This document shows positions 5,168 through 31,830 of a stretch of DNA of 64,000 nt, piece by piece. The notes under the pieces were generated by a model. That model did no database searches, had not been told where the DNA came from, and saw only the letters and a list, made by a program, of their open reading frames with translations. The DNA is from an uncultured Spirochaetota bacterium (GTDB lineage Bacteria > Spirochaetota > UBA4802 > UBA5550), in the NCBI GenBank assembly GCA_963827275.1, contig CAWHAA010000005.1, positions 384,001 through 448,000 of the forward strand, written 5' to 3'. The stretch's first letter is position 1, and each line of letters opens with the position of its first letter. The translations under genes and the position numbers were made by a program.

Positions 5168-5170
5168 ACC

Positions 5171-5980: not shown

Positions 5981-6000
5981 GCCTGAATTTAATTTGACAC

Positions 6001-6042
6001 AAAAGCCCCACGGCTGGGATTATCCACCGTGGGGCTTTTTTT
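6001..6042 (+). terminator. Intrinsic terminator after fdhAB
   Basis: AAAAGCCCCACGG...CCGTGGGGCTTTTTTT. Confidence 0.8.
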
Positions 6043-6072
6043 ACTGCAACGCGCCACAAGGGCACTATACCG

Positions 6073-9012: not shown

Positions 9013-9022
9013 CACGTAATTA

Positions 9023-9385: not shown

Positions 9386-9400
9386 CCAGCAAATTTTCTC

Positions 9401-9429
9401 TTGACATATATTGATTATTTTAGTATTAT
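9401..9429 (+). promoter_or_regulatory. Sigma70 promoter of the Rrf2 gene
   Basis: TTGACA-17 nt-TATTAT. Confidence 0.7.
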
Positions 9430-9460
9430 AGTACCAATATACCATTTTACAGGTAACGCT

Positions 9461-12666: not shown

Positions 12667-14781
12667 TCAGCCTGTGATTAATATGCGGCTGTCAACCGCC
12701 TTGTGTCCCCGCTTCTGCTCATACACGACCACGGGGTTGATTTCGATGTCAGTGATCCTCGGGCATTTCCTGATGATGGTGCCCACCTTGATGAGCGCAT
12801 CTATCAGCCCCTCGATGTCTTTCCGCGGCTCACCGCGCACGCCCAGGAGCAGAGGGAACGACCTGAGTTCCTTCAGCATTTTCATCGCCTCGGCCTTGTT
12901 GAAGGGATATCCCCTGAAGGCCACGTCCTTCATCACCTCGACATAGATCCCGCCGAATCCGCACATCACTATCGGCCCGAACGACGCGTCCCGCCGCGCC
13001 CCGACGATGATCTCCGTTCCCTTCTGCACCATCTCGCAGACCTCGATCCCGTCGATATGGGCGTCCGGCTTGTACGCCTGGCAGTTCTTGATGATCGCCT
13101 CATAGGCGTCCATCACCTCTTCCTTGTTGTCGATATCAAGCGCCACGCCGCCCGCGTCGCTCTTATGGAGGATGTCCTTCGACACGATCTTCATGACCAG
13201 GGGGTAGCCTATCTCTTCAGCGATCTGGACCGCCTGCTCGATCGAGTGCGCCACTTTCGTCTGTGGAATGCTCACCCCGGCGGCCCGCATCACCGCGGAG
13301 CCCTCGTTTGCGAGGAGGAACGAACGCCTGTCCGCCAGCGCGCCGTCGACGATGCGGTTGATTGCCGCGATATCGATGTCGGCATCCTCGGCGGCGCCGG
13401 TCTTTTCGGTCTTCGACCGCTCGGACCGGTAGAGCATGCCGAGGCAGGAGACCGCCTGGTACACGTCGCCGTAGACCGGCACGTTGTCGTGCCTCAATCG
13501 TATGATTGCGTCCTCGACCGCCGTGCCGCCCACAATGGCGTAGCAGACGGGCTTGCCCGCGTCCAGATGTTTTTTATGGGTCGCCTTTATCATCGGCACC
13601 AGGTCGGCCGACTCGAAGGTCGCCGTTTCGCAGTAGAGCGCGATAGTGGCGTCGATGCCCGGGTTCGCCGTTGGGACCGACAGGGCAAGATCATAGTCTT
13701 GTGCCTTGGCGCCGCCGGTCAGGTCCACCGGGTTCTTTGTTGAGCCGAAGGAAGGGACCACGGACTCGAAGGCGCGCTTCAGCTCGGCCTGGTCGTCATA
13801 GAGGTCAATGGCGTAGCGCTCGCACGCGTCCGTGGCCATGACACCCACGCCCCCGCCGTTGGTGATGATCACGCTCTTGTTTCCCTTCGGCTTCGGCGAA
13901 AAGGCGAGGAACTTGCACCAGTTGAAGGCCTCGTCGATGCTGTCGGCGCGGATGACGCCGCACTGCTTCATGATGGCGTCGAAGATGTTGTCCGAGCCGG
14001 CAAGCGAGCCGGTATGCGAGGCAGCCGCCATCGCGCCCCGCTTGGACCGGCCCGATTTTATCACCACGACCGGTTTCGTGTCGGTCGTGCGCATGAGTGC
14101 GCTGATGAGACGTTCTCCGTTTTTCACGCCCTCGATGTACATCAGGATGACCCGGGTGTCGTCGTTTTTAATGAGGTACTCCAGCAGGTCCGCCTCGTCG
14201 ATATCGCACTTGTTGCCGATCGATACGATCGTCGAAAGCCCGATGTTCTCGACGGCGGTCTTGCCGATAAGGGCGATCCCCAGCGCGCCGCTCTGGGTAA
14301 GTATCGCCACGTGGCCCGGGAGCACCGTCCCCGCCGAGAACGTCGAATTCAGGCTCGCGGGTGCCGAATAGAGGCCGAATATGTTGGGCCCCAGCACGCG
14401 CATCCCGTGCTCGCGCGCCACGGCCACGATTTTTTTCTCCTCCTCCGTGTTCCCGGTCTCGGAGAACCCGGACGTGATTATCTGCATGAACTTCACGCCC
14501 TTCTTCGCGCACCTGGTCACCGCATCGAGCACAAATTTAGCAGGGATGACGACCGACGCAACGTCGATATCGCCCTCGATATCCTCGATGTTTTTATACA
14601 CCCTGTTCCCGAGGATCTCTCCTCCCTGCGGATTGATCGGGTACACCTTCCCGGCATATCCTCCGGAAACGATATTGTTCATGATTTTGTAACCGATCTT
14701 ATCCGTATCGTGCGAAGCGCCGATGACCGCAAAACTTTTTGGTTCAAAAAGTGTCCTGATGTCGCTGCTATTTTTTGTCAT
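12667..14781 (-). CDS. acd: ADP-forming acetate/acyl-CoA ligase, fused alpha+beta
   Basis: IGAS, GPNIFG, QSGA, SHTGSL phospho-His motif, HKSDAGGV, EINPV. Confidence 0.9.
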   Translation of the reverse strand: MTKNSSDIRTLFEPKSFAVIGASHDTDKIGYKIMNNIVSGGYAGKVYPINPQGGEILGNRVYKNIEDIEGDIDVASVVIPAKFVLDAVTRCAKKGVKFMQIITSGFSETGNTEEEKKIVAVAREHGMRVLGPNIFGLYSAPASLNSTFSAGTVLPGHVAILTQSGALGIALIGKTAVENIGLSTIVSIGNKCDIDEADLLEYLIKNDDTRVILMYIEGVKNGERLISALMRTTDTKPVVVIKSGRSKRGAMAAASHTGSLAGSDNIFDAIMKQCGVIRADSIDEAFNWCKFLAFSPKPKGNKSVIITNGGGVGVMATDACERYAIDLYDDQAELKRAFESVVPSFGSTKNPVDLTGGAKAQDYDLALSVPTANPGIDATIALYCETATFESADLVPMIKATHKKHLDAGKPVCYAIVGGTAVEDAIIRLRHDNVPVYGDVYQAVSCLGMLYRSERSKTEKTGAAEDADIDIAAINRIVDGALADRRSFLLANEGSAVMRAAGVSIPQTKVAHSIEQAVQIAEEIGYPLVMKIVSKDILHKSDAGGVALDIDNKEEVMDAYEAIIKNCQAYKPDAHIDGIEVCEMVQKGTEIIVGARRDASFGPIVMCGFGGIYVEVMKDVAFRGYPFNKAEAMKMLKELRSFPLLLGVRGEPRKDIEGLIDALIKVGTIIRKCPRITDIEINPVVVYEQKRGHKAVDSRILITG

Positions 14782-16663
14782 TGCCCGCACCAAATGTTAT
14801 AGTATATTCATATACGCCATCCTCCACCTTTTTGTCGACACGGTAACCCATCTTGTCAAACATGTGGAGCATCGGCTTATTATCCCCGAGCACGTCCGCC
14901 GTAAAACCCTGGAGCCCCTCGTTTTTCGCAAGGACGGTAATGTAGTCAAGGAGCTCCGTCCCGATTCCCTTGCCCTGGTATTCGTCCCGTACCGCGAAGG
15001 CTATGTCGGCGAAGTTCTTGTCCTCCCATTTCACGTACTGCCCGATTCCAACGACAATCTCGATGTCGTTTTTGTTCGTGCATGCCAGTATCACGATCTC
15101 TTTCGTGTAGTCTATGACCACGAACTTCTGGCGCATCTTGTGCGGAATGTCCTTCCGCACCGTCATAAAGCGGCGCTGGAGGCTCTGGTCCGACAGCGAA
15201 TAGAAAAAGTCCTTTATGAGGTCCTCGTCGCTGATGCGCACCGGCCGCAGGAACAGCTTGAAGCCGCTCCGGGTGCGGCGGTGCGTCTCAAGCCGCTCCG
15301 GGTAAACCCCCTTGTCGCCGGGGATGAACGCCTGGTCGCGGTATATGAGGTTGAGGCGCTTTGCCTCCTCGATCAGCCAGGGCCGGAAATTGGGATGCGC
15401 GATGCCGATCAGGTCCATCGCCCTCTCCCGTATGTTCTTGCCGTGGATGTAACAGATGCCGTACTCGGTGACGATATAATGTATATCGCCCCGGTTCAGG
15501 GTAACGCCGGCGCCGGTCTCTAAAAATGGCACGATGCGCGACACCTCCCCGTTCCTTGCGGTAGACTGCACCACCAGGATGCTTTTCCCTCCCTTTGACA
15601 GCACCGCCCCGCGCATGAAGTCCGCGCTCCCCCCGATGCCGCTGTAGAAGGTGCTTCCGATCGATTCCGCGGTCGACTGCCCGGTGAGGTCCACCTGGAG
15701 GGCGCTGTTGATGGCGGTCATGTTGTCAATGCTCGCGATGACCATCGGGTTGTTGGTATAATCTATCGAACGAAAATCGATGAGCGGGTTGTCGTTTATG
15801 TACTGGTAGGTGGGCTGCGATCCCATGCAGAACGAGGCCACCGTCTTGCCCCGGTTTACATTTTTCCGCGTATTGTCTATCGCACCGCTTTTTATCAGGT
15901 CAACAATCGAATCAGTGAGAAGCTCGGAGTGCACTCCCAGGTGGCGCTTGTTCTTCAGGTTGTAGAGGATGGCGTTGGGGAGGCTCCCGTACCCGAGCTG
16001 TATCGTGTCGCCGTCATTGATGATCCGGGAAACATACTTCCCGATTTCCTGCCCCACATCGCCGGGAACCTCCGGTGTATACTCCAGGAGCGGCTCGTCG
16101 CGGTGCACGATGAAATCCATGTCCTTGATATTCACGAACGTATCCCCGTGCACGCGCGGCATCTTCGCGTTGATCTGGGCGATAATGACCGAGGCCTTCT
16201 CGATGGCCGCCCTGGATATGTCAACGCTGACGCCCAGGCTCATTAACCCGTTCTCGTCAGGCAGGGACGTCTGGATCAGGGCAACATCGATGCGGATCCG
16301 TCCGCTGTATATGAGGCCCGGCACGTTCGACAGGAAGATGGGGGTATAATCGGCGAGGCCGCTATTGACGGATTTTCTGGTATTATCGCCAACGAAAAAC
16401 GAGTTATGCCGGAAATTGTAATCGAACTGCTGGTCAGCGTACGGCGCCACGCCGAGGGACCACACGTGCATCACCTGGGTCTCGGCAAAAGCGCGGGGGT
16501 TCGACCCGAGATAGGTCGCGAGCGCCTGGACAAGGTACTGCGGCTCACCGCAGCCGGTGCTGATGAATATACGATCGCCGCGCTGGATGCTGCCGAAAAT
16601 ATCCTCTTCCGGGGCGAACTTCTTTGGATACTTTTTCTTCCATGTTTCAACCGGATTTGTCAA
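14768..16663 (-). CDS. Acetyl-CoA hydrolase/transferase fused to a C-terminal GNAT domain
   Basis: QLGYG, HSE, GIGGSADF, VTEYG; C-terminal VRDEYQGKGIG and N..ML; AGGAGG RBS before TTG 16663. Confidence 0.9.
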   Translation of the reverse strand: MTNPVETWKKKYPKKFAPEEDIFGSIQRGDRIFISTGCGEPQYLVQALATYLGSNPRAFAETQVMHVWSLGVAPYADQQFDYNFRHNSFFVGDNTRKSVNSGLADYTPIFLSNVPGLIYSGRIRIDVALIQTSLPDENGLMSLGVSVDISRAAIEKASVIIAQINAKMPRVHGDTFVNIKDMDFIVHRDEPLLEYTPEVPGDVGQEIGKYVSRIINDGDTIQLGYGSLPNAILYNLKNKRHLGVHSELLTDSIVDLIKSGAIDNTRKNVNRGKTVASFCMGSQPTYQYINDNPLIDFRSIDYTNNPMVIASIDNMTAINSALQVDLTGQSTAESIGSTFYSGIGGSADFMRGAVLSKGGKSILVVQSTARNGEVSRIVPFLETGAGVTLNRGDIHYIVTEYGICYIHGKNIRERAMDLIGIAHPNFRPWLIEEAKRLNLIYRDQAFIPGDKGVYPERLETHRRTRSGFKLFLRPVRISDEDLIKDFFYSLSDQSLQRRFMTVRKDIPHKMRQKFVVIDYTKEIVILACTNKNDIEIVVGIGQYVKWEDKNFADIAFAVRDEYQGKGIGTELLDYITVLAKNEGLQGFTADVLGDNKPMLHMFDKMGYRVDKKVEDGVYEYTITFGAGNDKK

Positions 16664-16729
16664 CCCGACGCCTCCTGTTACTTCCATCAATTATATCGCG
16701 GGATGGAATTTCGCCCGCGTCCTCCGCGT

Positions 16730-17107
16730 CTAGGGCCTGTCCATCTCCTGCTTGACCAGTTTCAGCATCTCGTCAATATCGTACGGTTTCTGGAGTGTCC
16801 CGTTGCAGCCGAGCTCATAGATATCTATGTTTGACGCCGTGAGCTTCCCGATGTCGCTCAGAAGATAGATGGGCACCTTTTTGTCCATCTCCCTGATTTC
16901 GCGCACCAGCCTGAAGCCCGAGTCGATCTTCTCCATCATGATATCGCAGATGATCAAGCCCGGCTTCTTTTCCCTGAAAAGCCTGACGCCCTCGGCTCCG
17001 CTATCCGCCGCAGCGACCTGGTATCCGACCGATTCAAGCATTGTCTTTAGCGATGACAGGAAATCCGGATCATCATCGATTATCAGAATAATTTTCCTGT
17101 TACGCAT
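16730..17107 (-). CDS. Single-domain response regulator
   Basis: IIDDD, CDIMM, QKP. Confidence 0.85.
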   Translation of the reverse strand: MRNRKIILIIDDDPDFLSSLKTMLESVGYQVAAADSGAEGVRLFREKKPGLIICDIMMEKIDSGFRLVREIREMDKKVPIYLLSDIGKLTASNIDIYELGCNGTLQKPYDIDEMLKLVKQEMDRP

Positions 17108-17208
17108 CAACCCCCTCCTTGATGTCCACCGTCATTGCCGGCAATCCTCGGCGAATCGCCCTCCTGATTACAATTAACGGCATGGTTGAATCCATTTCAA
17201 ATTTTAAT

Positions 17209-18288
17209 TCACGAAACAGCATCCTTCGGGATGGTGAAAAAGAAGGTCACGTAATCCCCTACTACCGACTCCGCCCACATCCGCCCGTGGTGCTTTTCTA
17301 TGATCTTTTTGCAAATGTAGAGCCCGAGTCCCGATCCCTTCACGCCTTCGGTACCCTTCTGCTTTAAACGGTTGAATTTCTTGAAAAGCCGCTCTTCAAT
17401 GTCCTTTTTCGATATCCCGACGCCCTTATTGTTGATTGAAAAGACGATATTGCCGCCGTCCTCATACAGTCGGACCGCAATCTCCGTACCTTCGGCACCG
17501 TACTTTATTGCGTTATTCAGCAGGTTTGTAATAACAATCTGCAGGAGATTGGGATCACCGTTTACGTGAGGCTGAACGGAGAAATCCGTGACGATGGTCA
17601 TCTTCTTCATGTTGTCCTTGTATTCCGGTATATCGAGCACCGGCTGTATTACCTCGCCTACAAGGTCGATGTTTTTAGAAAATGATTCCAGGTTATCGAT
17701 GTCCATCTTGGAAAGGTCGATATAGCAGCGGATAATGTCCTCGAGGTACTGGCAGTTGCGGAGTATCCGCTCCACGGTCTTCTTCTGCTCCGGGTCCAGC
17801 GTCCCGAGGTAGCCCCGGTAGAGGGTCTCCGCCGTGGTATGCACCGCCGACACCGGGCTCTTCAGCTCATGCGATACGATGGCCATGATGTCCAGCATGC
17901 CGGAATCGGAATTCTTCTCCCGTGATTTCACCGCGTTATCGACGACCGACCTGAGCTCTTCGCTGGTGAACGGCTTCGGGATGTAATCGAACGCACCCGC
18001 TTTGAGCGCCTCCCGGGCATTCTCGACCGTCGCATACCCGGTAAAAATGACCACGGTCACATCGGGCCTGTTCTTTCTCAGGTCGGCGAGCACTTCCATG
18101 CCGCTCATCCCCGGCATCTTCAGGTCAGTAATGACGATATCAGGTTCTTTTTCGGCGACACGGCGCATGCCCTCGTCGCCCGATGAAGCGGTTTCGATTT
18201 CATATGCTTCGTTTTTCAATATCCTGAGGCAGCTTTTCAGCACGATATCCTCATCATCGATTATCAGAATACGTGTTTTTTTATCCAT
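17209..18288 (-). CDS. Receiver-histidine kinase hybrid
   Basis: IDDE, DLKMP, KP; SHELKSP, NAIKY, GSGLGL. Confidence 0.9.
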   Translation of the reverse strand: MDKKTRILIIDDEDIVLKSCLRILKNEAYEIETASSGDEGMRRVAEKEPDIVITDLKMPGMSGMEVLADLRKNRPDVTVVIFTGYATVENAREALKAGAFDYIPKPFTSEELRSVVDNAVKSREKNSDSGMLDIMAIVSHELKSPVSAVHTTAETLYRGYLGTLDPEQKKTVERILRNCQYLEDIIRCYIDLSKMDIDNLESFSKNIDLVGEVIQPVLDIPEYKDNMKKMTIVTDFSVQPHVNGDPNLLQIVITNLLNNAIKYGAEGTEIAVRLYEDGGNIVFSINNKGVGISKKDIEERLFKKFNRLKQKGTEGVKGSGLGLYICKKIIEKHHGRMWAESVVGDYVTFFFTIPKDAVS

Positions 18289-18317
18289 GTCGCCCTCGAG
18301 AAGTAATCAAGAATCTA

Positions 18318-20255
18318 TCAAGTTGCTGCAACATTTTCCGCGTCAACAGGAAATTCAACCGTGAACGTGGTGCCGGCGCCCAGCGTGCTTTCCACCCGAA
18401 TGGTCCCGTTATGGCGCTGGACTATTCCATAGGTCACGGAAAGCCCCAGCCCGGTGCCCTTACCCGTCTCCTTTGTCGTGTAAAATGGATCGAATATTTT
18501 CGTGAGGTTCTCCCGGCTGATCCCGGTGCCCGTATCCGTCACCGTGACGATTATTTTCCTTCCCTGGTCGTCATACCGCGTCTTTACGGTCAGCTCCCCG
18601 CCGCCTGACATCGCGTCCGCGGCGTTGACCGCCAGGTTGTTCAGCACCGATTTTATCTGGTTCGTGTCCAGGTTGAAGTCAGGCAGGTCCTCGCCCAGGT
18701 CTTTATTTATCTTTATATTTTGGAAGGTAACGTGTTTCTCGAGTATCGCAAGCAGCTCATTGATTATTTTATTAATGTTCGCGGGGCGCTTGTCAATTTT
18801 TGTTTCTCGCGCAAAATCGAGGATGCCTTTCACGATTTCACGGCACCGCAGCGTCTCATCAATGATCACCTTCAAATCCGCCTGGTAGCCCGGGTCCTTG
18901 ATCTCCTCGTACAGCACGGTACTGTAGGTGAGCACGCCGGTAAGCGGATTGTTTATCTCGTGTGCGATGCCGGACGCAAGCCTTCCCAGGGACGCCAGTT
19001 TTTCTGACTGCGCCATCTGCATCTCGGTCTGCTCCTTGAGCTTCCGGTCGCGTTCGGCGATCGCATCGATCATCATGTTGAATGTTTCACACAGGTATCC
19101 CATCTCGTCAGACGATACCACGTCGATCTTCTTCGTGTAATTGCCCGCCGCCATCTGCTTCGACGCCATCACGAGGGAGCGTATGGGAGTGGTAATGCCT
19201 CTTATAAGGTACACGGAGAGAGCCGCCGCCATGAAGATCGAAATCATGATGATAAGCATGGAGAACAGTGTGGCATTCCGCTTGATCACATTGTACTTTT
19301 CTTCGAGTATTCCCACATAGAGAATTCCCACGACCTTTTTATCCAGGTCATATATCGGGCTGTAACCGGAGAGGTACCAGTTGCTCACCACGAACGCCTT
19401 GTCGAGCCACATCTTCTCGCGCTCGAAAACTTCCCGGTACACCTCTTCCGACACCTGTGTCCCCACGGCACGCGTGCCGTGCCTATTTTTTACGTTTGTC
19501 GATATGCGCAGGTCATCCATGAATATCGTTACGGTGCCGATTTCGTATCCGCCGATACGCTCGTTTTTGAAAAGCAGGTTCTTCAGCGAATCGACCATTT
19601 CAAAGTTTTTATTAAGCAGCTTCGCGCCGTAAATAACGCCGATAAGCCTCCCATTGCTGAAGATCGGCGCGGCGGCCTTCTTGCACATGCCGTTTGCTTC
19701 AAATATTTTATCCTTCGGCCTGGCCCGCAGCGTCGGTATGACACGGATATACGCCTGGTCCGCGAGTTTTTTGCTTTCGCGGAGCAGATCGTCCCGGCTC
19801 ACGATATCGGTCCCGGAGCATGATTTTCTATTTTCGATCACGTACCTGACGAACCGGTCCCCGCTGACATCGTCACCGAAGTTGTCGGAGCTGTTCGCGC
19901 GCGCGATGACCCTTCCGTTCGCATCCGTAATGGTCATGATATCGATGTTGAGCTCCTTTTTAACTTCCCGGAGTTTTTCAACAAGGAGGGTACGGTTATT
20001 CTGCAATATTGCTGTCTGGAGATAGCCGAGCGATGAAAGGTGGTTGATGAAAAGATAGATTATCTGTATGCGTTCGTTATAAAAATAGATGGCAGTGTTG
20101 AGGTGGCTCCTCACTTCATCATATGCCTGGCCAACCACGTTGTTATTGATGACGTTGCGGCTGATAAATATGGAGCTTATGCCGCTTATGGCGACAACTG
20201 ACATCAGGCTGATTACAAGTTTTGTGCTAATCTTAGCCTTGAATCGTCCCATCAT
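18318..20255 (-). CDS. Cache/HAMP sensor histidine kinase
   Basis: Two TM helices, RISTNV..RAVGT, HAMP, AHEINNP, GTGLGL. Confidence 0.9.
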   Translation of the reverse strand: MMGRFKAKISTKLVISLMSVVAISGISSIFISRNVINNNVVGQAYDEVRSHLNTAIYFYNERIQIIYLFINHLSSLGYLQTAILQNNRTLLVEKLREVKKELNIDIMTITDANGRVIARANSSDNFGDDVSGDRFVRYVIENRKSCSGTDIVSRDDLLRESKKLADQAYIRVIPTLRARPKDKIFEANGMCKKAAAPIFSNGRLIGVIYGAKLLNKNFEMVDSLKNLLFKNERIGGYEIGTVTIFMDDLRISTNVKNRHGTRAVGTQVSEEVYREVFEREKMWLDKAFVVSNWYLSGYSPIYDLDKKVVGILYVGILEEKYNVIKRNATLFSMLIIMISIFMAAALSVYLIRGITTPIRSLVMASKQMAAGNYTKKIDVVSSDEMGYLCETFNMMIDAIAERDRKLKEQTEMQMAQSEKLASLGRLASGIAHEINNPLTGVLTYSTVLYEEIKDPGYQADLKVIIDETLRCREIVKGILDFARETKIDKRPANINKIINELLAILEKHVTFQNIKINKDLGEDLPDFNLDTNQIKSVLNNLAVNAADAMSGGGELTVKTRYDDQGRKIIVTVTDTGTGISRENLTKIFDPFYTTKETGKGTGLGLSVTYGIVQRHNGTIRVESTLGAGTTFTVEFPVDAENVAAT

Positions 20256-20281: not shown

Positions 20282-20683
20282 TTATGTGTTTTTCGCGACC
20301 TTCTCGAGGAGTTGATCAAAATTCACCGGTTTTGTCAAGAAATCATTAATCCTCGGCAAAAAACTGTCCTTGTCGCTGAGAGAGAACCGCGAATTGGTCA
20401 CCTGGTTAATTGCGGTGAGCACGATAATCGGCACATTCTTTACTTCTTTATACTTTGAAGTCGGCCGTTCGCTCCGCAGCATGTCTGCCACTTCAAAACC
20501 GGCAGTGTCCTTCTCCATCATGATATCCAGTATGATCAGGTCCGGCTTTACCGCCAGGACCTTTTTCAGCGCCTCGGCGCCTGAATACGCCTCGGTCACT
20601 TCATATCCTTTCATGGAGAGCACTTTAGATATACTGGCACAGGTATCTATATCATCGTCGACCAATAATATTTTTTTGCTCAT
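20282..20683 (-). CDS. Single-domain response regulator
   Basis: VDDD, LDIMM, LTA, TKP. Confidence 0.85.
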   Translation of the reverse strand: MSKKILLVDDDIDTCASISKVLSMKGYEVTEAYSGAEALKKVLAVKPDLIILDIMMEKDTAGFEVADMLRSERPTSKYKEVKNVPIIVLTAINQVTNSRFSLSDKDSFLPRINDFLTKPVNFDQLLEKVAKNT

Positions 20684-20802: not shown

Positions 20803-21335
20803 CTATTTATTCAGCACCTGGTATATAACGTTCCGCTCTTCCCAGGCCTTGTTCTTCAGATACACGTCGATCGGGAACTCGACCTGTTTCAGCTCGACCG
20901 GGGACGCCTTCTTGTCCACGAGGCCCAGTGCGAGCGCCACGCCGTAAATTATTGCCTCCGGCTTCGGCGGGCATCCGGGGATGATATAGTTCACCGGCAC
21001 CGCCTTGTCGGCGCCGCCCGGTCACATGGTAGCAGTCAAACCAGCGAACCGCCGCCGGACGCGCAGGACCCGATGCCGAACACCAGCTTCGGCTCCGGCA
21101 TCGCCTCGTAGGCCTTCTTCACCAGCGGGAGGGTCGGCCTGGTGACCGCGCCGGATATCAGCATGACGTCGGCATGCCTCGGCGAAGCGACGAGCTTCAT
21201 TCCGAAACGCTCGATATCGTAGTAGGGCGTCAGGACGTTCAGAATTTCTATATCGCAACCGTTGCAGGCGCCGGAGTTGCAGTGATATACCCAAAGTGAC
21301 TTGGGAAACGCTTTTTTGCATAATTTGGCCAGCAT
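20803..21335 (-). CDS. Group-4 [NiFe]-hydrogenase small subunit (HycG/NuoB-like), frameshifted near 21020-21050
   Basis: CNGCDIE, GSCASGG, PGCPP across fragments. Confidence 0.85.
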
Positions 21336-21346
21336 ATCTCTTCTCC

Positions 21347-21885
21347 TTACTTCTGGGGTCTCTTGTAATGATCCGACTCTTCCAGCATCTTTGCGTCAAA
21401 ATGCTCAGTGGCCTTCTGGAATCACGGCGCGCGTCTCAAGGTTGTCATACCGGAACCCCCGGAGCCCCATCTTGTCGATCATGTTCGTCGTTTCCATGTT
21501 GTAACACCTGCCGCAGCGCTGGCATGTCAGCATGAAGAGCTCCATGTTGACGGTGATATCGTTCTTGTCGTTGGTCGCCAGCTCATACTGCTCGGTCATG
21601 GTGATGGCGTTTTCCGGACAGACATCGGCGCACCGCCCGCAGTAGGTGCAGCGCGATCCGTCGTAGAGCATGACGCGCAGGTCCTGGCAGACGTCGCGGA
21701 TCATAGATTGTCCGCGCCGGACAGTGGGCCGCGCAGCCGCCGCAGCCGACGCATTTATGATGATCCCATGACGGCTGTCCCCTGAAATCCTTCGCCACCG
21801 GATGCGGCTCGAAGGGATAGTTCAGGGTGACGACGCCCGGCTTTAAAACCATCAGAACCTGTTTTATTTTACTCGTAAGCCACAC
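21347..21885 (-). CDS. 2x[4Fe-4S] subunit (HycF/NuoI-like), frameshifted
   Basis: TLNYPF, FRGQP, CVGCGGCAAHCP, CTYCGRCADVCP, CQRCG. Confidence 0.8.
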
Positions 21886-21907
21886 AATAGTTCTCCTTAA
21901 ATTAAGA

Positions 21908-22817
21908 TTATATCCCGTATACGGACAATCCCACCGCAACCAGGGACGCGACGATCAGCACCGCGTAAAACTTCTGCGCCTGGTCGATCCGGAGCCGCGG
22001 GTGGGTCGAACCCAGCACCGCGATCAGGACATAGACCAGCAAAACAAATGCCAGCTGAATCAGAACATCCACGCCATAGAACCCGGTCTTGAATCGCCGG
22101 TATGAACACGATGACGAAGAGTGTGGCATAGAACATCTGTTTCAGCAGCATGTAATACTTGAACAGGGCCAGATTGGGACCGCTGTACTCGATGAACGGG
22201 CCTTCCAGTATCTCGACCTCGGCCTCAGCGATGTCAAAGGGCTGCCGGCCGACGAAGGCCTGCAGCGCCATCAGGTACACCACCAGCATGATGATGACCG
22301 ATGCGCCGTAGCCTGCCGCCGGTAACGCTGCAATACCGAGGCAGGGATCCCGAGGCTCTTTACCTTGACGGCGCCCAGGATGAAGCGTCATCGCCAGCAC
22401 CGGCTCGACCATGATCATGGTGATCATCTCGCGGCTTGACCCGATCAGCGCGTACGTGTTCTTGCTGGATAGGGCGCCCAGCAGGACGGCGACGCCGCCC
22501 AGGGTGAGCAGGTAGATGATGGTGATCACGTCGGCGTACTGCGTCAGGTAATTTTCCCTGTAGCCCAGCGGCAGGAACACGATGACGCTCAGGATCGAGG
22601 CGAAGCGCCACCACCGGCGCGATCTTAAACGCGATGTTTCCCGCGGACAGGTTCTGCTTGCCCAGGAGCTTCAGGATGTCATAGTACGGCTGGGCATGAG
22701 GGGCGGTCCCTGGCGGGACTGCACCACCCGCGCCGTTATTCTCCTGACCACGCCCTCGAAGAAGGGGGCCAGCGCCAGAAAGACCAGTATATTCACCACA
22801 ATGTACAGAATGTCCAT
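21908..22817 (-). CDS. Membrane subunit (HycD/NuoH-like), frameshifted
   Basis: QSRQGPP, GSSRE, PFDIAEAEVEILEGPFIEYSG. Confidence 0.8.
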
Positions 22818-22821
22818 GTTC

Positions 22822-24506
22822 TTACCTTCCCGCCGTTTTTTTAGCTCGAGATATCTTTTCCAGGTCGCTGTTCGAGAGATGCGACATCGCGCCGGACCTG
22901 ACGTCAACCTTGACGACCCTGTCGGTGCAGGAGAAGCAGGGGTCGATGCTCCCGATGATGATCGGCAGATCGGCGAACTGGTCGTTGAGCAGCATCGCCG
23001 GAACGCCCTGCAGGTTCGGATAGGTCGGGGCGCGCACGCGCCACCGTTCCGGCCTGTTCTCCTCGCCGGTGATCAGGTAGTGAACGGCCTCGCCCCGCGG
23101 CGCCTCGACCGCGCTGATCGCATGCCGCAGCGGCGTCACGTCCTCATTGAACTCGGTCATGATCGGACCGGCAGGCATCTTGTCGAGCGCCTGGCGGATG
23201 ATCTTGATCGCCTCAAAGGTCTCGAGTATCCGCACTACCACGGTGCCCCACACGTCGCAGGAATCCACGACCGGCACGTCAAACTGCATTTCGTCGTACG
23301 CCGCGTAGGGATGGTCGCGCCGCACGTCGATGTCGACGTTGCGCGCCCGCGCCACCGGTCCGACCAGGCTCCAGAGCCTGGTCTCTTCGGTGGTGATGCA
23401 GCCGACGCCCTTGGTCCGGCGGTGTATGGAAGTATCGCCGGCGACCGCCTTGTAAATGACCATCAGCTCTTTTTCAATTGTATTTGATTACATTCCGGAG
23501 CTCGTCGGCGAGCTCCGGCGTGATGTCCCTGCGGACGCCGCCAGCTACGATCATGCCGTAGGTCTTCCGGTTTCCGGTCAGCTTCTCACCGTACCACATG
23601 ATGGCTTCCCGCACCCGCCATGCCTGCATGAACACCGTGTCAAAGCCGATCAGGTGCCCGGCGATTCCCAGCCAGAGGAGGTGGGAGTGTACGCGCTCGA
23701 TCTCGAGCATGATGGTGCGGATGTATTCCGCCCGCCGCGATATCTTCAGGCCGGCGACAGACTCAACGCACTGCGCGTATGTTGCGGCGTGCACCGAGCC
23801 GCAGATGCCGCAGATACGCTCTGCGATAAAGGGTATTTCATTGTAGGTGAGCTGGGTCTGGCAGAGCTTCTCGAGTCCGCGGTGCACCATGAACCCGCGG
23901 TAATCGCAGCCCTTGATGGTCTCGCCGTCGACGAAGACCGCGAAGTGCGCGGGCTCGTGCAGGGTCGGGTGGAAGGGGCCCACCGGGATGGTGGTGCAGC
24001 CTTCCGGCGCCTCGTCGAGCTGGTAGGCGACGTTCTCCGCCGCGGGCGGCATCAGGTTCCAGGGGACGTCCTTGCGGAGCGGATAGATCCCTTCGGGCCA
24101 GTCGTCGGCCAGGATCAGCTTCTTCGGCTTGGGATGTCCCTTGAATTTCATGCCGAGCAGGTCCATGTATTCGCGCTCGGACCAGCCGGCATTGGGTATG
24201 TCCGGCGTGATCGAATCGAAACTCGGGATTGTCCACCGGCGCCGCGGTGCGTATGCAGACGAAGACATCGTCCTTGTCCATGCTGAAGGTGTGGATCAGC
24301 CCCAGGGTCTTGTCCCGGGCGATATTGTCGTACCCGACGCTTACCAGGTACCGGCCGCCCATCTTGATGATCTCGTTCGAGATGTCGCGGACCTTGCTCT
24401 TGTCAATATCCACGAACAGACGCGTACTGTAGGGGCTATCAAAGTTCTTAATGCTGTTCTGGTATTTATCTTTTAACTGTTTTTTTATTTCGTCAATAGT
24501 AAGCAT
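22822..24506 (-). CDS. Group-4 [NiFe]-hydrogenase large subunit (HycE, NuoCD-like), frameshifted
   Basis: EREYMDLLG, HRGLEK, ERICGIC and DPCFSCTDR Ni ligands, C-terminal extension. Confidence 0.9.
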
Positions 24507-24532
24507 GTTGTACCTCGTATGAATAAAGTGCC

Positions 24533-26390
24533 TTATTTTTTAATATTGCCCCCGGTCCACTTGACCGCCTTTTTGAAGGCGGAATACATCCCATGGGCCT
24601 GATACCTGTTCTTGTTGTTCAAATCCTGATATCCGCACAGCCAGGTCGGCACCTCTTTTTCTTCCGAGCCTCCCGACTTCTTGAGCAGCCACGCCAGGAT
24701 GTACGCCACCGCGAGCACCGCCAGGACTACGAGCGGCACCGCTACCGACGACACGAGCCCTTCCATGCCGGGCACGGTGACGGACACGCCCATGGCCGAG
24801 TTCACGATCATGTTGTCAAGCGTTACGTCCGCGAAGAGCGGCTGGATAATTGAGCCCGCCGAATTCTTGAATATGCTGATGAAGAGCCCGAAATATAGAA
24901 AGGGGAAGAGGCCCTGGACCAGGCAGAGCACCGCAAGGATGACCTTGGGGATCAGCATGGTCGACGGGTACTTCCTTGATCTTCTTGGTAACCGTCCACT
25001 CGACGCCGGAGGAGGCAAACGTCATGCCGAAGAACTTCACGTACGACGCCAGGGTGACGGCGCTGGTGAACAGCGCGATGATGCCGAATATCACCAGGAA
25101 CATGACCTGTTGAACCCGCCAGGATGTTCGATGATATGATCGTCCACTTGCTGGCAAAGCCGCTGAAGGCCGGCATCCCGGCGATGGAGAGTGACGCGAT
25201 CCCCGCGACGACCGCGGTCACCGGCATGAGCTTCATGAGCCCGCCCAGCTTGTTCAGGTCCTTGGTGCCGGTCGCGTAGAGGACGCTCCCGGTGGAGAGG
25301 AAGAGCAGCCCCTTGAACACGGTGTGGTTCAGGGTGTGGTAGAGGGCGCCGACGATGGCGACGACCGACAGGAGCTTCACGAACTCGCTGCCGCTGTTCA
25401 GCATGACGAGCGCGGACCCGATACCGAGTATGATGTAGCCCATCTGGCCGATGGAGTGGTACGCGTGGAGCCGCTTGGCGTCATGCTGTTTCAGCGCCTG
25501 GTTCGTTCCGATGAAGAGGGTCACGACGCCGAAGGAGGCGATGACGATGCCCCAGAGCGACCCGTTGTAGCCCTCGGCCGGCACCATCCAGAAGAAGGTC
25601 CGGATGATGCCGTACACGCCGGTCTTGATCATGACGCCGGAAAGGAGCGCGCTGATCGGTGACGGCGCTATGGAGTGCGCGTCGGGCAGCCAGAGCTGTC
25701 CGAAGGGGAACATACCGGCCTTGAAGCCGAAGCCGATGAGGAGCAGCCCGTAGACGAAGTACAGCGACACGCCCTTGGTCGCGCCCATCTTGACGCCGAG
25801 TTCATGCAGCGAATCGCCCAACGAAGCGCCGCTGATGAAGAACGTCGCCGACCACTATCAGGACCCAGGCCAGCTCCATCAGGATGAGGTACTTGTTCGC
25901 GTTTTTCACGTTTCCGGTCGGTCCGGTACTCGAAGCGGATCAGGAAATAGGAAGCGATCGTCATGATCTGCCATGCGACGGTGAACCCGGTGGTCAGGTC
26001 GTCAACGGTCACGATCGCGATCATCCCCAGGATGAAGAGCGGGAAGGTCAGGTAGTAGCTCCAGAGCTTATAGTCGGGATAATGCTCCATGTACTGGATC
26101 GAGTAGAAGGCGCTCATGATCGCCATGAAGGAGATTATGGCGATGAAGAACCCTGCAAAGGGGTCAACGAGGAAATATATGCCCAGCATCTTCTGGGCAT
26201 GCTCCCCGCCACCGCCCTGGAAAAGGGTCACATAACTTATATTCAATAGCATGATGGCGGCGACGGATACCAGGATGAAGTTCACCCAGCCCGCCAGTTT
26301 GCGTTTGCTCGACAGTATCGGACCGATAACAGCGGCGCCGAGCAGGATCGCCATCGCGGTTAACAGGCTGCCATAGAGATCAATGTTCAT
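24533..26390 (-). CDS. Antiporter-like membrane subunit (HyfB/HycC/NuoL-like), frameshifted
   Basis: KAGMFP..WLPDAH, SALLSGVMIKTG, HTVFKGLLF, GFASKW. Confidence 0.85.
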
Positions 26391-26889
26391 ATACGAGCTC
26401 CTTTTGATCACAGTTAATGTAAGATAATAATAGATCGCGGATTATATCAGCACTTTTCTTCACATCATCGGAAAGGCCGGTCCCGAAGTCCACTGTCACG
26501 GACTTCAATGCCCATGAACCAGGTCTTTTTGTTATACTGCTCCAGGATCTTCCCCGAGAGGAACAGTGCGAGTTTATGGGTCGAAAAATTACCGATTGCT
26601 TCCTTCACTTCATTCAGCCGGCCGAAGAGCACCGATCCGGTCTCCGCGCCCGACTGCATCGCGTCTATGATGACCACGTTGTCGCAGTCAGCTTCGGCGA
26701 TTCTGATACACATAATTTTCAATGACGTCCTCGACATTCAATGCCGTTACGGAATCCGACTCGATCAGGTCCCTGTATCCCGTCAACGATATGCAGGCCC
26801 ACCGCGTCGTCGCCCATGAGGTAGTTCCCCATGCCGACGAAGCAGGTCTTTTCGCGGGCAAGCCGCTCTATGACGGGAAGGAAATCCAT
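26380..26889 (-). CDS. Hydrogenase maturation protease (HycI-like), frameshifted; 3' end approximate
   Basis: GMGNYLMGDDAVG, IIDA, STH. Confidence 0.8.
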
Positions 26890-27725
26890 TAGATCTGCTC
26901 TCCCAGGGTCTTGATCTGACGGTAGGTATATACCGGGCCGTCGGTGCAGACCAGGGTCCGGCCGATGGCGCAGTGCTGGCATTTTCCGATGCCGCACTTC
27001 ATGTGGCGCTCGAGGGTGGAGATGATGTTCTCCTCCCCGATGCCCATCTCGGTGAGCTCCTTGATGACGGCATTGAACATCATCGGCGGGCCGCAGACAA
27101 AGGCGACCGTGTCCTTGACCGGTATGTTCTTCTTCTTGATCAGGGTATGCACGAACCCGACCTCGCCGTCCCAGCCGGGGACAGGGTTGTCGATCGTGAT
27201 ATTGGTCTCGAAACCCGGGCGTTTTCTTCCACTCTTCCAGGTTTTTCTCGTACATGAGTTCCTGGGGAGTACGGGCGCCCAGGAAAAGAAGGACGCGGCC
27301 GAACTTGTCCTTGTTCTGCATAACGTGCATGATGGAGGAACGGAGCGGGATAAGCCCGATACCGCCGGCGACATAGATAATGTTTTTACCCTTGATCTCC
27401 TCGAAGGGAAACCCGTTGCCGAACGGGCCGCGGATGCCGATCTTGTCGCCCGGCTTCAGCTCGTGCAGCGCGTTGGTCACCTTGCCGACCCTGCCGCACC
27501 GTGAGGTGAAACCGGTCATTTTCCGGGCAGGTGGGAAGCGATACCGCGAATTCCCCCGCGCCGAACACGGTGCACATGACGAACTGGCCGGATGTAAATT
27601 TCGGCGCCTCGCCGCCTTTCCGCGCATCGAAGGAAAGGTAAAAGGTTTTTACTTCCACGATCTCGTCTTTGATTTCATCAATCGTTACGATTTCCGGTAT
27701 TGTTATGTTGTATTATTTCGCTCAT
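26889..27725 (-). CDS. AsrB / sulfhydrogenase gamma-like FAD-NAD(P)H [2Fe-2S] subunit, frameshifted
   Basis: GQF, RGPFGNGF, AGGIGLIP, CGPP, CGIGKCQHC, CTDGPV. Confidence 0.85.
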
Positions 27726-27734
27726 GTCACCCAC

Positions 27735-28792
27735 CTATTTTTGAATCTCTCTTCTTATATACGTGACGACATTGGGCAGACCGATATCGCCCGGGCACAC
27801 CCACTGGCAGCGCCCGCAGCCGACGCAGCCGGGCCGCAGATATTTCTTCGACTGGGAATACGACAGCTTGCAGAAGAACCGCTTGCTCCGCCGGTCTTCA
27901 ACAGGCTTCCGCGGGTTGTGGCCGCCCGCCATCCGGGAATACCCCTCGTAGGAGCAGGAATCCCAGGTGCGCATCCGGTCCGCCGCGTCGGGGGCCGTTA
28001 CCGGGTCAGCGATATTGAAGCAGGAGCAGCTGGGGCACACGAAGGAGCAGGCGCCGCACTCGATGCACTGGTTGCCGATATATTCCCACACCTTTTCTTC
28101 AACCAGGCCCGTGGTGACCCTGTTCATCACGCGGGAGATCCACGCCTTGTTGTCTTTCGCGATCGAATCGAAGACGTGAAATCGACTTATCGACCGCCTT
28201 CTTCTTTCGCTTTCTTGTGCGAATCGTCGGACTTGGCGAGCCCGAGCTTCTCCGCGAGTTTCGTGCCCTTCTCGCTCCCGACCTCGACGAGGTACTGGTC
28301 GCCCAGATCGGTCAGGTTCAGGTCATAGCCTTCCTGGGCGCTGGGGCCGCTGTCGGTGCATACGCAGAAGCACTGCTTGAACGGCGCGTTGCAGGTATTG
28401 GTCACGATGAACATGTTCTTCCGGTGGTTCTTGTACACCTCGTCGACGAATTCCTGTCCCAGGAAGAAGCGGTCCATGCAGAGGATACCGGTCAGGTCGC
28501 AGGACCGGAGGCCGAACAGCGCCTTCGGTTTGTCGTCGAAATCCGGCGTGATGTCGACCTTCTTGTTCTGGCGGTCATACTTGTACGACATGATCCGTTC
28601 GTAATTGGGGAACAGAGCATGTTTCGGCGGTATCGCCGGGATCGGTGCGTTCAGGTCAACCTCGGCCGCGTCATCGACCTTGACGAACATAGTCTGCTTC
28701 GTCTCCTTGTCGACAACGGGACCAAAGATCTGGTATTCCTTCTGCAGTTCCTTCGCAATATCCATTACCTGACTTTTTTTTATCAAATACAT
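27735..28792 (-). CDS. AsrA / sulfhydrogenase beta-like 4Fe-4S subunit, frameshifted near 28190
   Basis: RSCD, CFC, CIECGACSFVCPSCSC, WDSC, CVGCGRCQWVCP. Confidence 0.85.
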
Positions 28793-28794
28793 GG

Positions 28795-30782
28795 TTACAC
28801 CTTCACGATTCTTACTGGGATTGTTGAGTCTTCGCCTCTTTTCAGAACATCCTTGTGTTCCAAAAAGAACTTGGTCACCATATCATCAACGAAATAGGCC
28901 ACATAGGCCGTATTCGGTTTTACCTTGTCGGTAACCTGCACCATTGCCTCCATCGAGCCGTAGGGAGATACGATCTTTACCGTGAACCGGTCGCGCACGC
29001 CCAGCTCCTTGGCGCTCTGCGGCGACATGGCAACGTAGCCCTTCGGATAGAGGAGGAGCGTCGCATTGTATTCGCGCAGGGGCAAGCTCGTCTTTTTCAT
29101 CAGGTTGTTCTGGTGCCAGTAGTGCTGCGCCTCGCCCACCATCAGCAGGAACGGGTATTCCTCGCTGGTGAGGGGGACGCCCAGGCCGCCCTCTGTCGCC
29201 GCGAAGGCGACTTTCTTCGGTGCCGATTCGATATTGAAACGCGCCGCGCCGTTCGGCCACTTCACGCCGCCCATGACCTGGAGCTTGTCGTAGGTGATGC
29301 CGGCGTAATTCGGCGTGAGCTTCACGATCTCGGCCATGACGTCGGCAGGCGACGAGTAATTCCATTTCGCCCCCGCCTTCTCGGCGATCTTCGCGATCAG
29401 CTTCCACGCGGGGAGCACGTTCTTCGCGGGCTCGATCTTTTTCTTCGCGAGCTGCACGCGGCGCCCGGTATTGGTGAAGGTGCCGTCCGTCTCGGCGTAG
29501 GTGGCGGTGGGAAGCACCACGTGGGCGTAATCCGTGAAACTATTCTGGTACGAGCCCATGTAGGCGACGAAATCCATCTTGCTGATCTCGCTGACATTGC
29601 GGACGATTGTCTCGTCATGGTCGACCACCACGAGGGCCTTCAGCTTGCCGCCGAGCTCATTGACTGATTTGCCCGGGTTGGCATTGAGCTTTACGCCCCA
29701 CTCCTTGCTGAACTTCTCGACGGCCGCCTTGTCCGAGAGGGACTGGAACCCGGTAAGCAGGTCGGGGGCGATGCCCATGTCGTAGCTCCCCTGGAGGTTG
29801 TTGATCCCGGTGATGGGGTTGACGCCGCAGCCCTCTTTGCCGATCTTTCCGGCCATGAGGAACAGGTTGAATATATACCCGATGGTGTCCTTGTCAAATC
29901 CGGAGATCCCGGAGGAGAAAAAGACCATCGCCGACCTGGAAAGCGCCAGGTCGCGGGCCGCGTTCTTGAGGGCTTCGAGGTCGAGGCCGGTCTTCTCGGC
30001 CACGTCCGCGTCCTTGATCGAGGCGAGGACCGAGGCAAACTGGTCATAGCCTTCCGTGTATCTCTTAATGAAATCGACATCGCAGAGCTTCTCATCGACA
30101 AGGACCTTGGCCATGTAGGCCATCGCGACCTTGTATGCGCCGGGCCTGATCTGGAGGAATCCGTTTGAGAGCTTGGCGATCTGGGTGTTCCGGGTGTCGA
30201 TCGTCACCAGCGCGCGCGCCCTTCATGGCGGTCAGGTGCAGCTCACTGCCGATGATCGGGTTCTGCTTGGTGATGTCTATGCCGACGACAAGGAGGAAGT
30301 CCGCCTTGTTTATCTCATCAAGCGAGCCGAGCATCCCGGCCATGCCGGTCGCCCTTGTTCAGAACGTCAAGGCTGTTCCGGTGGCCGGGATCGGAATCGA
30401 GGCTGATGTTGTTTGAATTGAACACTGACCGCGCCAGCTTCATCAACAGGAAGTTGTCCTCGTTCGAAGAACGGGACGAGGCGAGGAATCCGATCTCTTC
30501 CGAGTTGTCCTTTTTGTACTTGGAAAGGTTTTCCACCAGATACGCGACCGCTTCGTCATAGGACGCTTCGACCAGTTTGCCGTTTTTCCTGATAAGCGGG
30601 GTCGTGATCTTGTCAGCGGTGCTTAAAAGCTCGTGCACGTTCCATCCACGCACACAGAGCCGCCCCTTGCTGACCGGGTGGTTTTGCATCGGGAATACGC
30701 CGCACACCTTGTCTCCCCTGACATCCAGGAGATGACCGCATCCCGTACCACAAAATGTGCAAATACCGGATTTATAATTCAT
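28795..30782 (-). CDS. FdhF-like molybdopterin-oxidoreductase-family subunit lacking catalytic residues, frameshifted
   Basis: CTFCGTGC..LCVRG, SNEDN, NNLQG, ETDGTFTNTGRRVQ; Cys/Sec position is Gly. Confidence 0.85.
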
Positions 30783-31158
30783 ACGAAAAGCTCCTCACTT
30801 AAATTATGTTTCTTCGCAGTCCACTCGCTGAAACAAGTACGCCGGCGGGAATTTCCGCACCTGAGCGAGCTGCCGTGTCCGTTTCAATTATTATTATTTA
30901 AATGCGGGTTTACTACCCTTTTGTACCTCAGAATGAAAATAATAAACTTTCTTTCTGCACACAGGAACAATACCATTAATTATGTTCACCGGTCAATGCC
31001 CGATAATTGCTAATTTTTAGTAGCAAAAATCGGTGATACAAAAGATTGATGGATGAGTGTTTGTTTTCAAGTAAGTATCGTGAGAGAATAAATGCAATTA
31101 TTTTTTCACGGATTTAACAGCTATTTCTGTAGAAACGACAAAACCAGTGCGGGATTGT

Positions 31159-31830
31159 TCATTTATTCTGCATTATAACCCACTGAATGGAATACTTGGC
31201 CAGGTCGGAGGAATTCTTGAGTTTCAGCTTTTCCTTTATGTTCTTTTTATGGCTTTCAACCGTATAAATGCTCAAATTCAGCTTTTTCGCCATTTCCTTT
31301 GTGCTGAACCCGTTCCCTATGAGCTGAAAAATCTCGAATTCCCGGTTGCTCAGGCTTTCAACCGATATGCCGATGGTGTCGGCGGAGCCGCGCACCAGCT
31401 TGTCTATGATTTTTTTCGAGATGTTTTCGCTCAGGTAGAGCTCATCGTTGAGAATGGTACGGATGGCGTTGATGATGTTTTTCGAGGCCATCTCCTTCAT
31501 TATATAGCCGCGCGCGCCGGCGCGGATGGCCCGCTCGGCGTAGAGGGACTCGTCATGCATGGTGAGGACCAGCGACCTGATGTCGGGAAACCGCTCGTTC
31601 ATCGACTTGACGAGCTCGATGCCGCTCACGTTGCCGGTAAGGGTGATGTCCACGATGACCAGGTCCGGCTTGTCCCTGTTGATGAAGTCGATCGCCTCGT
31701 TGGCGCTCGAAGCTTCGCCGATGACCCGCAGGTCGTCTTCGAGCTCGATGACCTGCTTGATCCCCTGCCGCAGCAGCGGGTGATCGTCAACGATCAGTAT
31801 CTTCTTTATTTCGCTTGTTTTGTCCGGCAT
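31159..31830 (-). CDS. NarL/LuxR-family response regulator
   Basis: DDHP, LTMH, LSNREFEIF HTH. Confidence 0.92.
   Translation of the reverse strand: MPDKTSEIKKILIVDDHPLLRQGIKQVIELEDDLRVIGEASSANEAIDFINRDKPDLVIVDITLTGNVSGIELVKSMNERFPDIRSLVLTMHDESLYAERAIRAGARGYIMKEMASKNIINAIRTILNDELYLSENISKKIIDKLVRGSADTIGISVESLSNREFEIFQLIGNGFSTKEMAKKLNLSIYTVESHKKNIKEKLKLKNSSDLAKYSIQWVIMQNK

Follow-up and report, generated by a model that had tools for sequence, protein, structure and literature searches.

In the window (the whole analysed stretch of 64,000 nucleotides, positions 384,001 to 448,000 of contig CAWHAA010000005.1 from an uncultured Spirochaetota bacterium, GenBank assembly GCA_963827275.1), a nine-gene operon runs on the minus strand from 30782 to 20803 in the order fdhF-like, asrA-like, asrB-like, protease, antiporter-like, large subunit, nuoH-like, nuoI-like and small subunit. 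Its product was read, tentatively, as a reversible, membrane-anchored, non- or weakly pumping NADH:H+ oxidoreductase (NADH, reduced nicotinamide adenine dinucleotide), that is, an NADH/H2 valve. The reading is based on a core resembling that of formate hydrogenlyase 1 (FHL-1; HycE-, HycG-, HycF-, HycD- and HycC-like subunits), on the absence of HycB, on a pair of proteins like the beta and gamma subunits of sulfhydrogenase, on lost catalytic residues in the Fdh-like subunit and on Gln in place of the glutamate of the fifth transmembrane helix of the antiporter. Electrons from NADH would enter at the flavin adenine dinucleotide (FAD) and [2Fe-2S] cluster of the AsrB-like subunit, pass over the [4Fe-4S] clusters of the AsrA-like subunit to the NuoI-like subunit, and continue through the small subunit to the NiFe site. 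Such an enzyme would act as a near-equilibrium redox valve, forming H2 from NADH only below about 3–70 Pa H2 and reducing NAD+ with H2 above that range; the setting for H2 release would be syntrophic fatty-acid oxidation or H2-scavenged fermentation. The genes of the cluster were as follows (all on the minus strand; aa, amino acids; frameshifts as counted below).

28795..30782, minus: FdhF-like subunit, about 661 aa; one [4Fe-4S] site, catalytic selenocysteine/cysteine (Sec/Cys) and Arg gone; 2 frameshifts
27735..28792, minus: AsrA / sulfhydrogenase-beta (HydB)-like Fe-S subunit, 351 aa; 13 near-invariant Cys; 2 frameshifts
26889..27725, minus: AsrB / sulfhydrogenase-gamma (HydG)-like FAD/NAD/[2Fe-2S] subunit, 277 aa; invariant Asp181; 3 frameshifts
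26380..26889, minus: HycI-type hydrogenase maturation protease, 168 aa; weak family matches; 3 frameshifts
24533..26390, minus: antiporter-like membrane subunit (HycC/HyfB/MbhH family), 616 aa; Gln at the NuoM E144 position, Lys at transmembrane helices (TM) 7, 8 and 12; 4 frameshifts
22822..24506, minus: group 4 [NiFe] large subunit, HycE-type NuoC-NuoD fusion, 560 aa; CGIC and DPCFSC intact, C-terminal extension; 2 frameshifts
21908..22817, minus: NuoH/HycD-like membrane subunit, 300 aa; acidic TM5-6 loop intact; 6 frameshifts
21347..21885, minus: NuoI/HycF-like ferredoxin, 178 aa; two [4Fe-4S] motifs and invariant Cys 66, 121, 124 and 127; 2 frameshifts
20803..21335, minus: [NiFe] small subunit, NuoB/HycG-like, 176 aa; 2 frameshifts
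20282..20683, minus: receiver-only (CheY-like) protein, conserved tenth gene, beyond the span of the original prediction

Integrity and conservation of the gene cluster

The nine genes named in the original prediction were all present between 30782 and 20803, on the strand and in the order given there. The window is part of a 4.13 Mb genome (92% complete) whose nearest relatives are uncultured Spirochaetota, for example RBG_13_51_14 and RBG_16_49_21; these and the host genome we take to belong to class UBA4802. Compared with an intact relative locus (L001), the nine genes carried 26 frameshifting indels, all of them +1/+2 insertions, with no in-register stop, 87–96% amino-acid identity and ratios of nonsynonymous to synonymous substitution (dN/dS) of 0.03–0.13, like intact neighbouring genes. 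Since all are insertions, no in-register stop occurs and dN/dS is low, the frameshifts are most likely read or sequencing errors and not decay, and a pseudogene reading of the operon was rejected on the same grounds. As the window copies are frameshifted, intact homologues were used for study. Family matches of the protease were weak (PF01750, E 8.5e-4; TIGR00072, E 1e-7), and the intact L001 copy had no Pfam match at 1e-8.

Homologous loci were collected from a GTDB scan (34 loci: 26 Spirochaetota or unnamed, 8 Chitinibacteraceae), from a metagenome scan whose best 80 of 215 matches gave 65 loci and from relatives (12 further regions), giving 111 loci in all with duplicates and close kin included. 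Gene order was kept in 106 of the 111, in uncultured Spirochaetota as well as cultured Chitinibacteraceae (62 loci with all ten genes, 44 in order but ending at a contig edge), a degree of synteny that is not chance. One further locus (L102) breaks within asrA, and in the remaining four both membrane genes have moved upstream. In these four (L107, L108, L116 and L119) the antiporter and nuoH genes lie upstream of the fdh-like gene as divergent copies (42–48% identical) that retain the Gln of TM5, which suggests that the membrane arm was replaced; a 'membrane-less variant' was considered for these loci and dismissed, as hyfB and nuoH sit upstream there.

Of 41 relatives, 29 carry the Fdh-like gene, as do 10 of 56 Chitinibacteraceae; across the phylum 43 of 301 genomes have it, all but two of these (41) from the order of the host. 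Close large subunits also appeared under the source names Rhodocyclus purpureus, Lamprocystis, Vicinamibacterales and Oligoflexia (from sequence matches). Carriers of the operon include cultured Chitinibacteraceae that possess complex I. Genome searches of two of the cultured carriers, Chitiniphilus eburneus and Chitinibacter tainanensis, found no other NiFe hydrogenase and no FeFe enzyme; the operon enzyme is the only hydrogenase found in either, and could be assayed there without cultivating the spirochaete.

In each of the 63 loci whose sequence extends past the small subunit, the receiver-only gene comes next. Its spirochaete and Chitinibacter copies are 46% identical and share insertions, against 36% identity to a neighbouring receiver, and Glu stands in for the phospho-accepting Asp in 8 of 57 distinct copies, those shown from Chitinibacteraceae among them. 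It is assigned, from this pattern, as the tenth member of the cluster.

Electron input and hydrogenase core

For the Fdh-like subunit, 153 rows (33 loci and 120 database proteins, not dereplicated) were aligned with E. coli FdhF. The position of Sec140 held Gly in 149 of 153 rows and Ser or Ala in the rest, never Sec or Cys; that of Arg333 held Thr, Ala, Ser or Val, with Arg in 0 of 153; that of Lys44 held Arg. His141 was retained in 148 of 153, and the four cluster cysteines wherever the N-terminus was present, so that among the residues that mark formate dehydrogenases with Mo/W-bis(pyranopterin guanine dinucleotide) (Sec/Cys140, His141, Arg333 and Lys44) His141 alone is kept. The window itself reads DSDPGH where E. 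coli FdhF reads CARVUH, with no TGA at that place, and the claim of a catalytically dead subunit held. As a control, 69 proteins with intact Cys/Arg motifs were taken from 149 profile-search matches; of 70 positions at least 90% conserved in this set, 42 were kept in the Fdh-like family and 28 fell below 80% retention. Among the lost positions are K44, R138, H181, Q335, D478, R581, N662 and K679, which line the pterin pocket; the kept ones are largely Gly, Pro and Cys. An AlphaFold model of the subunit (predicted local distance difference test 74, predicted template modelling score 0.76) had FdhF (1FDI) as its best Foldseek match (template modelling score 0.72), with 0.58 against mycobacterial NuoG. 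By these comparisons the protein is no formate dehydrogenase; it probably holds no pterin and is likely a cofactor-free structural subunit. Dead Fdh domains exist in more than one kind: among more distant FdhF-like proteins (P0362–P0375), several also have neither Cys140 nor Arg333 and show other replacements.

The proposed role as a scaffold analogous to NuoG stood in part. The subunit does resemble the dead C-terminal domain of NuoG, but it has no counterpart of the N-terminal Fe-S wire of NuoG, and its sole cluster corresponds to cluster A1 of FdhF, which overlays the off-pathway cluster N7 of complex I according to passages of PMC9474812.

A very unlikely alternative is that the Fdh-like subunit still binds a pterin or a nucleotide and is an enzyme or sensor for a substrate yet to be named, which would make the complex a three-way node between that substrate, NAD and H2. 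Family-specific invariant residues surround the old pocket, arsenite oxidase binds Mo without a protein ligand, and Chitinibacter tainanensis retains moaA, moeA and mobA although the only PF00384/PF01568 proteins there are the Fdh-like subunit and NuoG and no other client of bis-MGD (molybdopterin guanine dinucleotide in its bis form) was found. The loss of 28 of the 70 conserved formate dehydrogenase positions argues against it, and the retained pathway is accounted for in C. tainanensis by the fusion of mobA to moaC and by the presence of an MsrP-type enzyme. The MobA-MoaC fusion lies at 8393–9553 of locus L075, and no canonical bis-MGD enzyme was found in that genome. More widely, among the genes for the molybdenum cofactor, moaA passed its cut-off in 37 of the 41 relatives and in 5 of 5 Chitinibacteraceae and MoeA_N matched in 31 of 41. 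In 2 of the 3 Chitinibacteraceae genomes searched no fdhD was found, a result that counts for a cofactor-free Fdh-like subunit.

The AsrAB-like pair was confirmed, with the beta and gamma subunits of Pyrococcus furiosus sulfhydrogenase I as its nearest solved relatives over full length (AsrA-like to beta, E 5e-38; AsrB-like to gamma, E 2e-54). Both diaphorase features of a group 3b sulfhydrogenase are present, a gamma-type subunit for FAD, NAD(P) and [2Fe-2S] and a poly-[4Fe-4S] beta-type subunit. FAD and NAD motifs and the [2Fe-2S] cysteines of the AsrB-like subunit are conserved, as is Asp181 (70 of 70 copies), and the top PDB matches of the Asp181 segment are NADH-specific enzymes, ahead of the NADPH-type gamma subunit. 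In cytochrome b5 reductase the exchange D239T (Asp to Thr) shifts the enzyme to NADPH (a table of PMC5817062). With invariant Asp181 taken as equivalent to that D239, a match that printed alignments back loosely, a preference for NADH is suggested. The expectation of NAD(P)H-type input instead of formate was upheld, in that an NAD-binding flavin/Fe-S module replaces FdhF-HycB and the catalytic Fdh residues are gone. The annotations 'fdhF' and 'asrAB' mislead here, implying formate oxidation and sulfite reduction.

Ferredoxin-driven H2 evolution of the Mbh/Ech type, with AsrAB as ferredoxin entry or as a side branch to NAD+, has a similarly slim chance. It would by calculation be energetically able to pump, Rnf occurs in 5 of 5 carrier genomes, and ferredoxin was proposed as donor for the Hun hydrogenase (in parts of bioRxiv 10.1101/536078) and for a Saganbacteria cluster (in parts of PMC6349859). 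The AsrB-like subunit nevertheless keeps a complete FAD/NAD site and would appear to have no known bifurcating flavin motif, and the operon has neither an Mrp module nor CooF.

The large subunit fuses NuoC and NuoD in the manner of HycE and, like HycE, has a cleavable tail after CTDR; HycE is also its best PDB match (E 5e-123). It is 37–38% identical to HycE and HyfG (HycE and HyfG being 72% identical to each other) and formed a clade of its own in a quick preliminary tree with HycE, HyfG and NuoD as the only references; the proteobacterial copies were nested within the spirochaete ones in a preliminary unrooted tree. C232/C235 and C523/C526 are invariant in 9 of 9 aligned copies and intact in the window, where RICGIC and DPCFSCTDR are both read, as had been reported. 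Small, NuoI-like, NuoH-like and antiporter-like subunits are encoded with it, completing a group 4 core. In the NuoI-like subunit the eight cluster cysteines and C66, C121, C124 and C127 are present in 56 of 56 copies and the distal pair of HycF is absent; in HycF the region matching the extra-Cys site has one bound metal ion, close to FdhF and HycB (passages of PMC9474812). These four extra cysteines may bind a third [4Fe-4S] cluster, where HycB would dock. No match to HycB (at E 1e-6), HyfE or HycH was found downstream in any of the 111 loci. As hyp and nickel-transporter-type genes flank the operon in the Chitinibacteraceae genera Deefgea and Chitinibacter, a NiFe site is plausible; hypB is present in the host genome. 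The enzyme is assigned to the group 4 hydrogenases, distinct from FHL, from Hun and from formate dehydrogenases.

Membrane arm, energetics and genomic surroundings

As in FHL-1, two membrane subunits only are encoded (antiporter-like and NuoH-like), and FHL-1 with this same arm does not appear to pump protons, according to parts of PMC13277316. Gln occupies the HycC E135 / NuoM E144 position on TM5 in 66 of 66 distinct antiporter copies, with Lys at TM7, TM8 and TM12 likewise in 66 of 66; these two Glu positions are equivalent, the residue being essential in NuoM whereas HycC E135A is silent (passages of PMC5061711). The arm is, by its conservation, under selection, and canonical pumping is doubtful; the ion translocation assumed originally is thus in doubt, the arm being FHL-1-like and its antiporter devoid of the TM5 glutamate. 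This natural Glu-to-Gln exchange at a key position offers a direct test of pumping requirements and of fixed coupling polarity.

Several observations weigh against a valve that does not pump. TM7 Lys, H222, K239, H328, H332, K336, D354 and TM12 Lys are invariant in the antiporter-like subunit (66 of 66) and the acidic residues of the NuoH-like subunit are intact (58 of 58), and this invariant ion-conducting axis together with the NuoH acids suggests some ion-handling role. The TM5 Gln is common to 119 of 120 wider homologues from other phyla and is thus a subfamily trait, not recent decay, and NuoN tolerates loss of its TM5 Glu. The membrane pair is retained even where it has moved upstream and been replaced by 42–48% identical copies. 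The Fdh-like family has invariant motifs of its own (His141, W-H-Q-N-N) and a dN/dS of 0.13. Finally, the host already has NuoEF-linked enzymes, a group 3 hydrogenase and two Sec formate dehydrogenases, so that an uncoupled valve would be partly redundant there; this is the main argument for a coupled role. The wider HyfB-like Gln subfamily (P0241–P0360) includes proteins named Omnitrophica, Planctomycetota, NC10 and Verrucomicrobia.

Equilibria were calculated with assumed potentials (NADH at -320 or -280 mV, gradient 150 mV). Uncoupled, NADH-to-H2 comes to equilibrium at 66 or 3 Pa H2; with one H+ exported it stalls at 0.2 or 0.009 Pa, and with one H+ imported the limit is 23 or 1 kPa. In Ech and Mbh, H2 evolution is coupled to ion export and builds the gradient (parts of PMC6349859), so with that polarity the gradient would push toward H2 oxidation, not toward H2 from NADH, and syntrophic reverse electron transport with normal group 4 polarity needs inverted coupling. 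Reverse electron transport in a syntroph was for these reasons not supported as originally written: normal polarity drives H2 uptake, export stalls at about 0.01–0.2 Pa, and the operon also occurs in Chitinibacteraceae.

Canonical coupling was judged unlikely; here either inflowing ions would power the reduction of NAD(P)+ by H2 when H2 is at trace level, or the formation of H2 from NADPH would be accompanied by the export of one ion. Such coupling agrees with the Ech/Mbh polarity described in PMC6349859, and if NADPH is assumed to lie at -370 mV, export of one H+ would be feasible below about 10 Pa H2. The TM5 Glu is absent, however, Asp181 points to NADH, and with NADH the coupled equilibrium lies at 0.009–0.2 Pa, above which the gradient would be wasted. 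Close large-subunit relatives in records of the phototrophs Rhodocyclus purpureus and Lamprocystis (sequence matches) count for this alternative.

Inverted coupling, a mended form of the original idea, was considered a little less likely again: the Gln/Lys-type antiporter would admit ions (protons or sodium) to drive NADH-to-H2 uphill, as reverse electron transport for fatty-acid oxidisers or fermenters. With one H+ taken in for each H2, the limit would rise to about 1–23 kPa. The ion axis is conserved but unusual, and the nearest PDB relative of the antiporter-like subunit is MbhH, which in the model of the membrane-bound hydrogenase (MBH) carries protons inward. The operon antiporter is moreover the only one found in the host genome (no other Nuo L/M/N- or Mrp-type subunit by tblastn at E 1e-10, in a genome 92% complete). 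Against this stand the missing TM5 Glu, essential in NuoM, an operon without NuoJ/K/A-like subunits and its presence in Chitinibacteraceae, which to our knowledge are not syntrophs; we also know of no precedent for inverted polarity in a group 4 enzyme. Inverted coupling, if true, would give syntrophic fatty-acid oxidation a new route of reverse electron transport, resting on a Gln/Lys-type antiporter; an NADH input module would have been invented independently on a complex I chassis, with a dead formate dehydrogenase as scaffold and a third Fe-S cluster on the HycF-like subunit. Members of UBA4802 have been proposed as syntrophic fatty-acid oxidisers (in parts of PMC13248872 and PMC7382037), which also favours this alternative. 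The gene content of the host fits such a metabolism: four Sec formate dehydrogenases, a NuoEF-linked group 3 hydrogenase, a group 1 hydrogenase, Qrc, Rnf and a butyryl-CoA:acetate transferase-like gene.

Elsewhere in the window, an Fdh-N type formate dehydrogenase alpha gene, interrupted by a frameshift and by a TGA in frame that likely encodes selenocysteine, lies on the plus strand with a beta subunit and a mobA-type gene (2194–7506). Directly downstream of the cluster on the minus strand (12667–16690) are an acetyl-CoA hydrolase/transferase-GNAT fusion and an ADP-forming acetate-CoA ligase-like gene, which tie the region to acyl-CoA metabolism. Regulatory genes stand on both sides, a Cache/HAMP histidine kinase, a receiver-kinase hybrid and another receiver downstream (16730–20255, minus) and a LuxR-type regulator and PAS-type kinase upstream (31159–31830 and 35486–38125); neighbours of the kinase and LuxR types are met again in many spirochaete loci. 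Boxes for Rex, FNR, sigma-54, IHF, ModE and NikR were not enriched in 32 upstream leaders, no Rfam riboswitch was found in 7 loci or in the window leader, and the one sigma-70-like site is the number expected by chance. Two short leader blocks (30780–30895, minus), conserved among some members of the genus, might base-pair on either side of a variable loop; the window leader folded no better than shuffles (z -0.63). In Chitinibacteraceae loci L025, L027 and L031 (9330–9430) a terminator-like hairpin with a U-run lies about 40 bases upstream of the fdh-like start (z -1.3 to -2.4, no Rfam match). Three RNA runs of the same study yielded only short pieces, mostly less than 90% alike.

Comparison with known systems

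Literature searches found no description of this exact operon and no characterised NAD-linked group 4 hydrogenase, subscription journals lying mostly outside their coverage. That the architecture might match a known complex was found true in part: clusters joining AsrAB to group 4 hydrogenases have been described computationally, but their membrane arms, CooF or L2 motifs differ. The 'enigmatic' group 4 hydrogenase of Saganbacteria RX5A (as described in parts of PMC6349859) shares an unclassifiable one-cluster molybdopterin-family protein and asrA- and asrB-like genes; it has CooF, a separate NuoC, two Mrp antiporters and two more membrane subunits, was read as Mbh-like, and is set apart here by its description only. 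Hun of Atribacteria and others (passages of bioRxiv 10.1101/536078) shares AsrAB-like input on a group 4 hydrogenase and sometimes a 4Fe-4S molybdopterin-domain protein, but has 16 subunits, a full Mrp module and a CYCC L2 motif, against 9–10 genes, one antiporter and CFSC in the operon.

The input pair is homologous over full length to the beta and gamma subunits of P. furiosus sulfhydrogenase I (PDB 9NEZ) and to Salmonella AsrAB. Those pairs serve a soluble group 3b core or AsrC, whereas the operon pair goes with a group 4 membrane enzyme and is predicted to use NADH, not NADPH. The C-terminal domain of NuoG in complex I has the same formate-dehydrogenase fold without catalytic residues and one [4Fe-4S] cluster at the same site (N7; parts of PMC9474812); the Fdh-like protein stands alone, has no N-terminal Fe-S wire and is nearer to FdhF than to mycobacterial NuoG in fold (0.72 versus 0.58).

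E. coli FHL-1 (FdhF-HycBCDEFG; PDB 7Z0S/7Z0T) is alike in its HycE-type fused large subunit, HycG, HycF, HycD and HycC counterparts, two-subunit arm and protease gene, and the operon subunits are 28–45% identical to the Hyc structural subunits (large subunit 37%). The operon differs in having no HycB, in encoding a dead Fdh subunit within it and in its HydB/HydG-like NAD module; HycC carries Glu/Leu/Glu where its antiporter carries Gln135/Lys208/Lys391, and the distal CPxC of HycF is replaced in the NuoI-like subunit by other cysteines. Of the traits of group 4a, it thus has the NuoC-D fusion and the two-subunit arm but neither an active Sec/Cys-Mo formate dehydrogenase nor HycB. On this comparison the operon is predicted to work like FHL-1 with a sulfhydrogenase diaphorase in place of the formate input, and it stands between formate hydrogenlyase and complex I.

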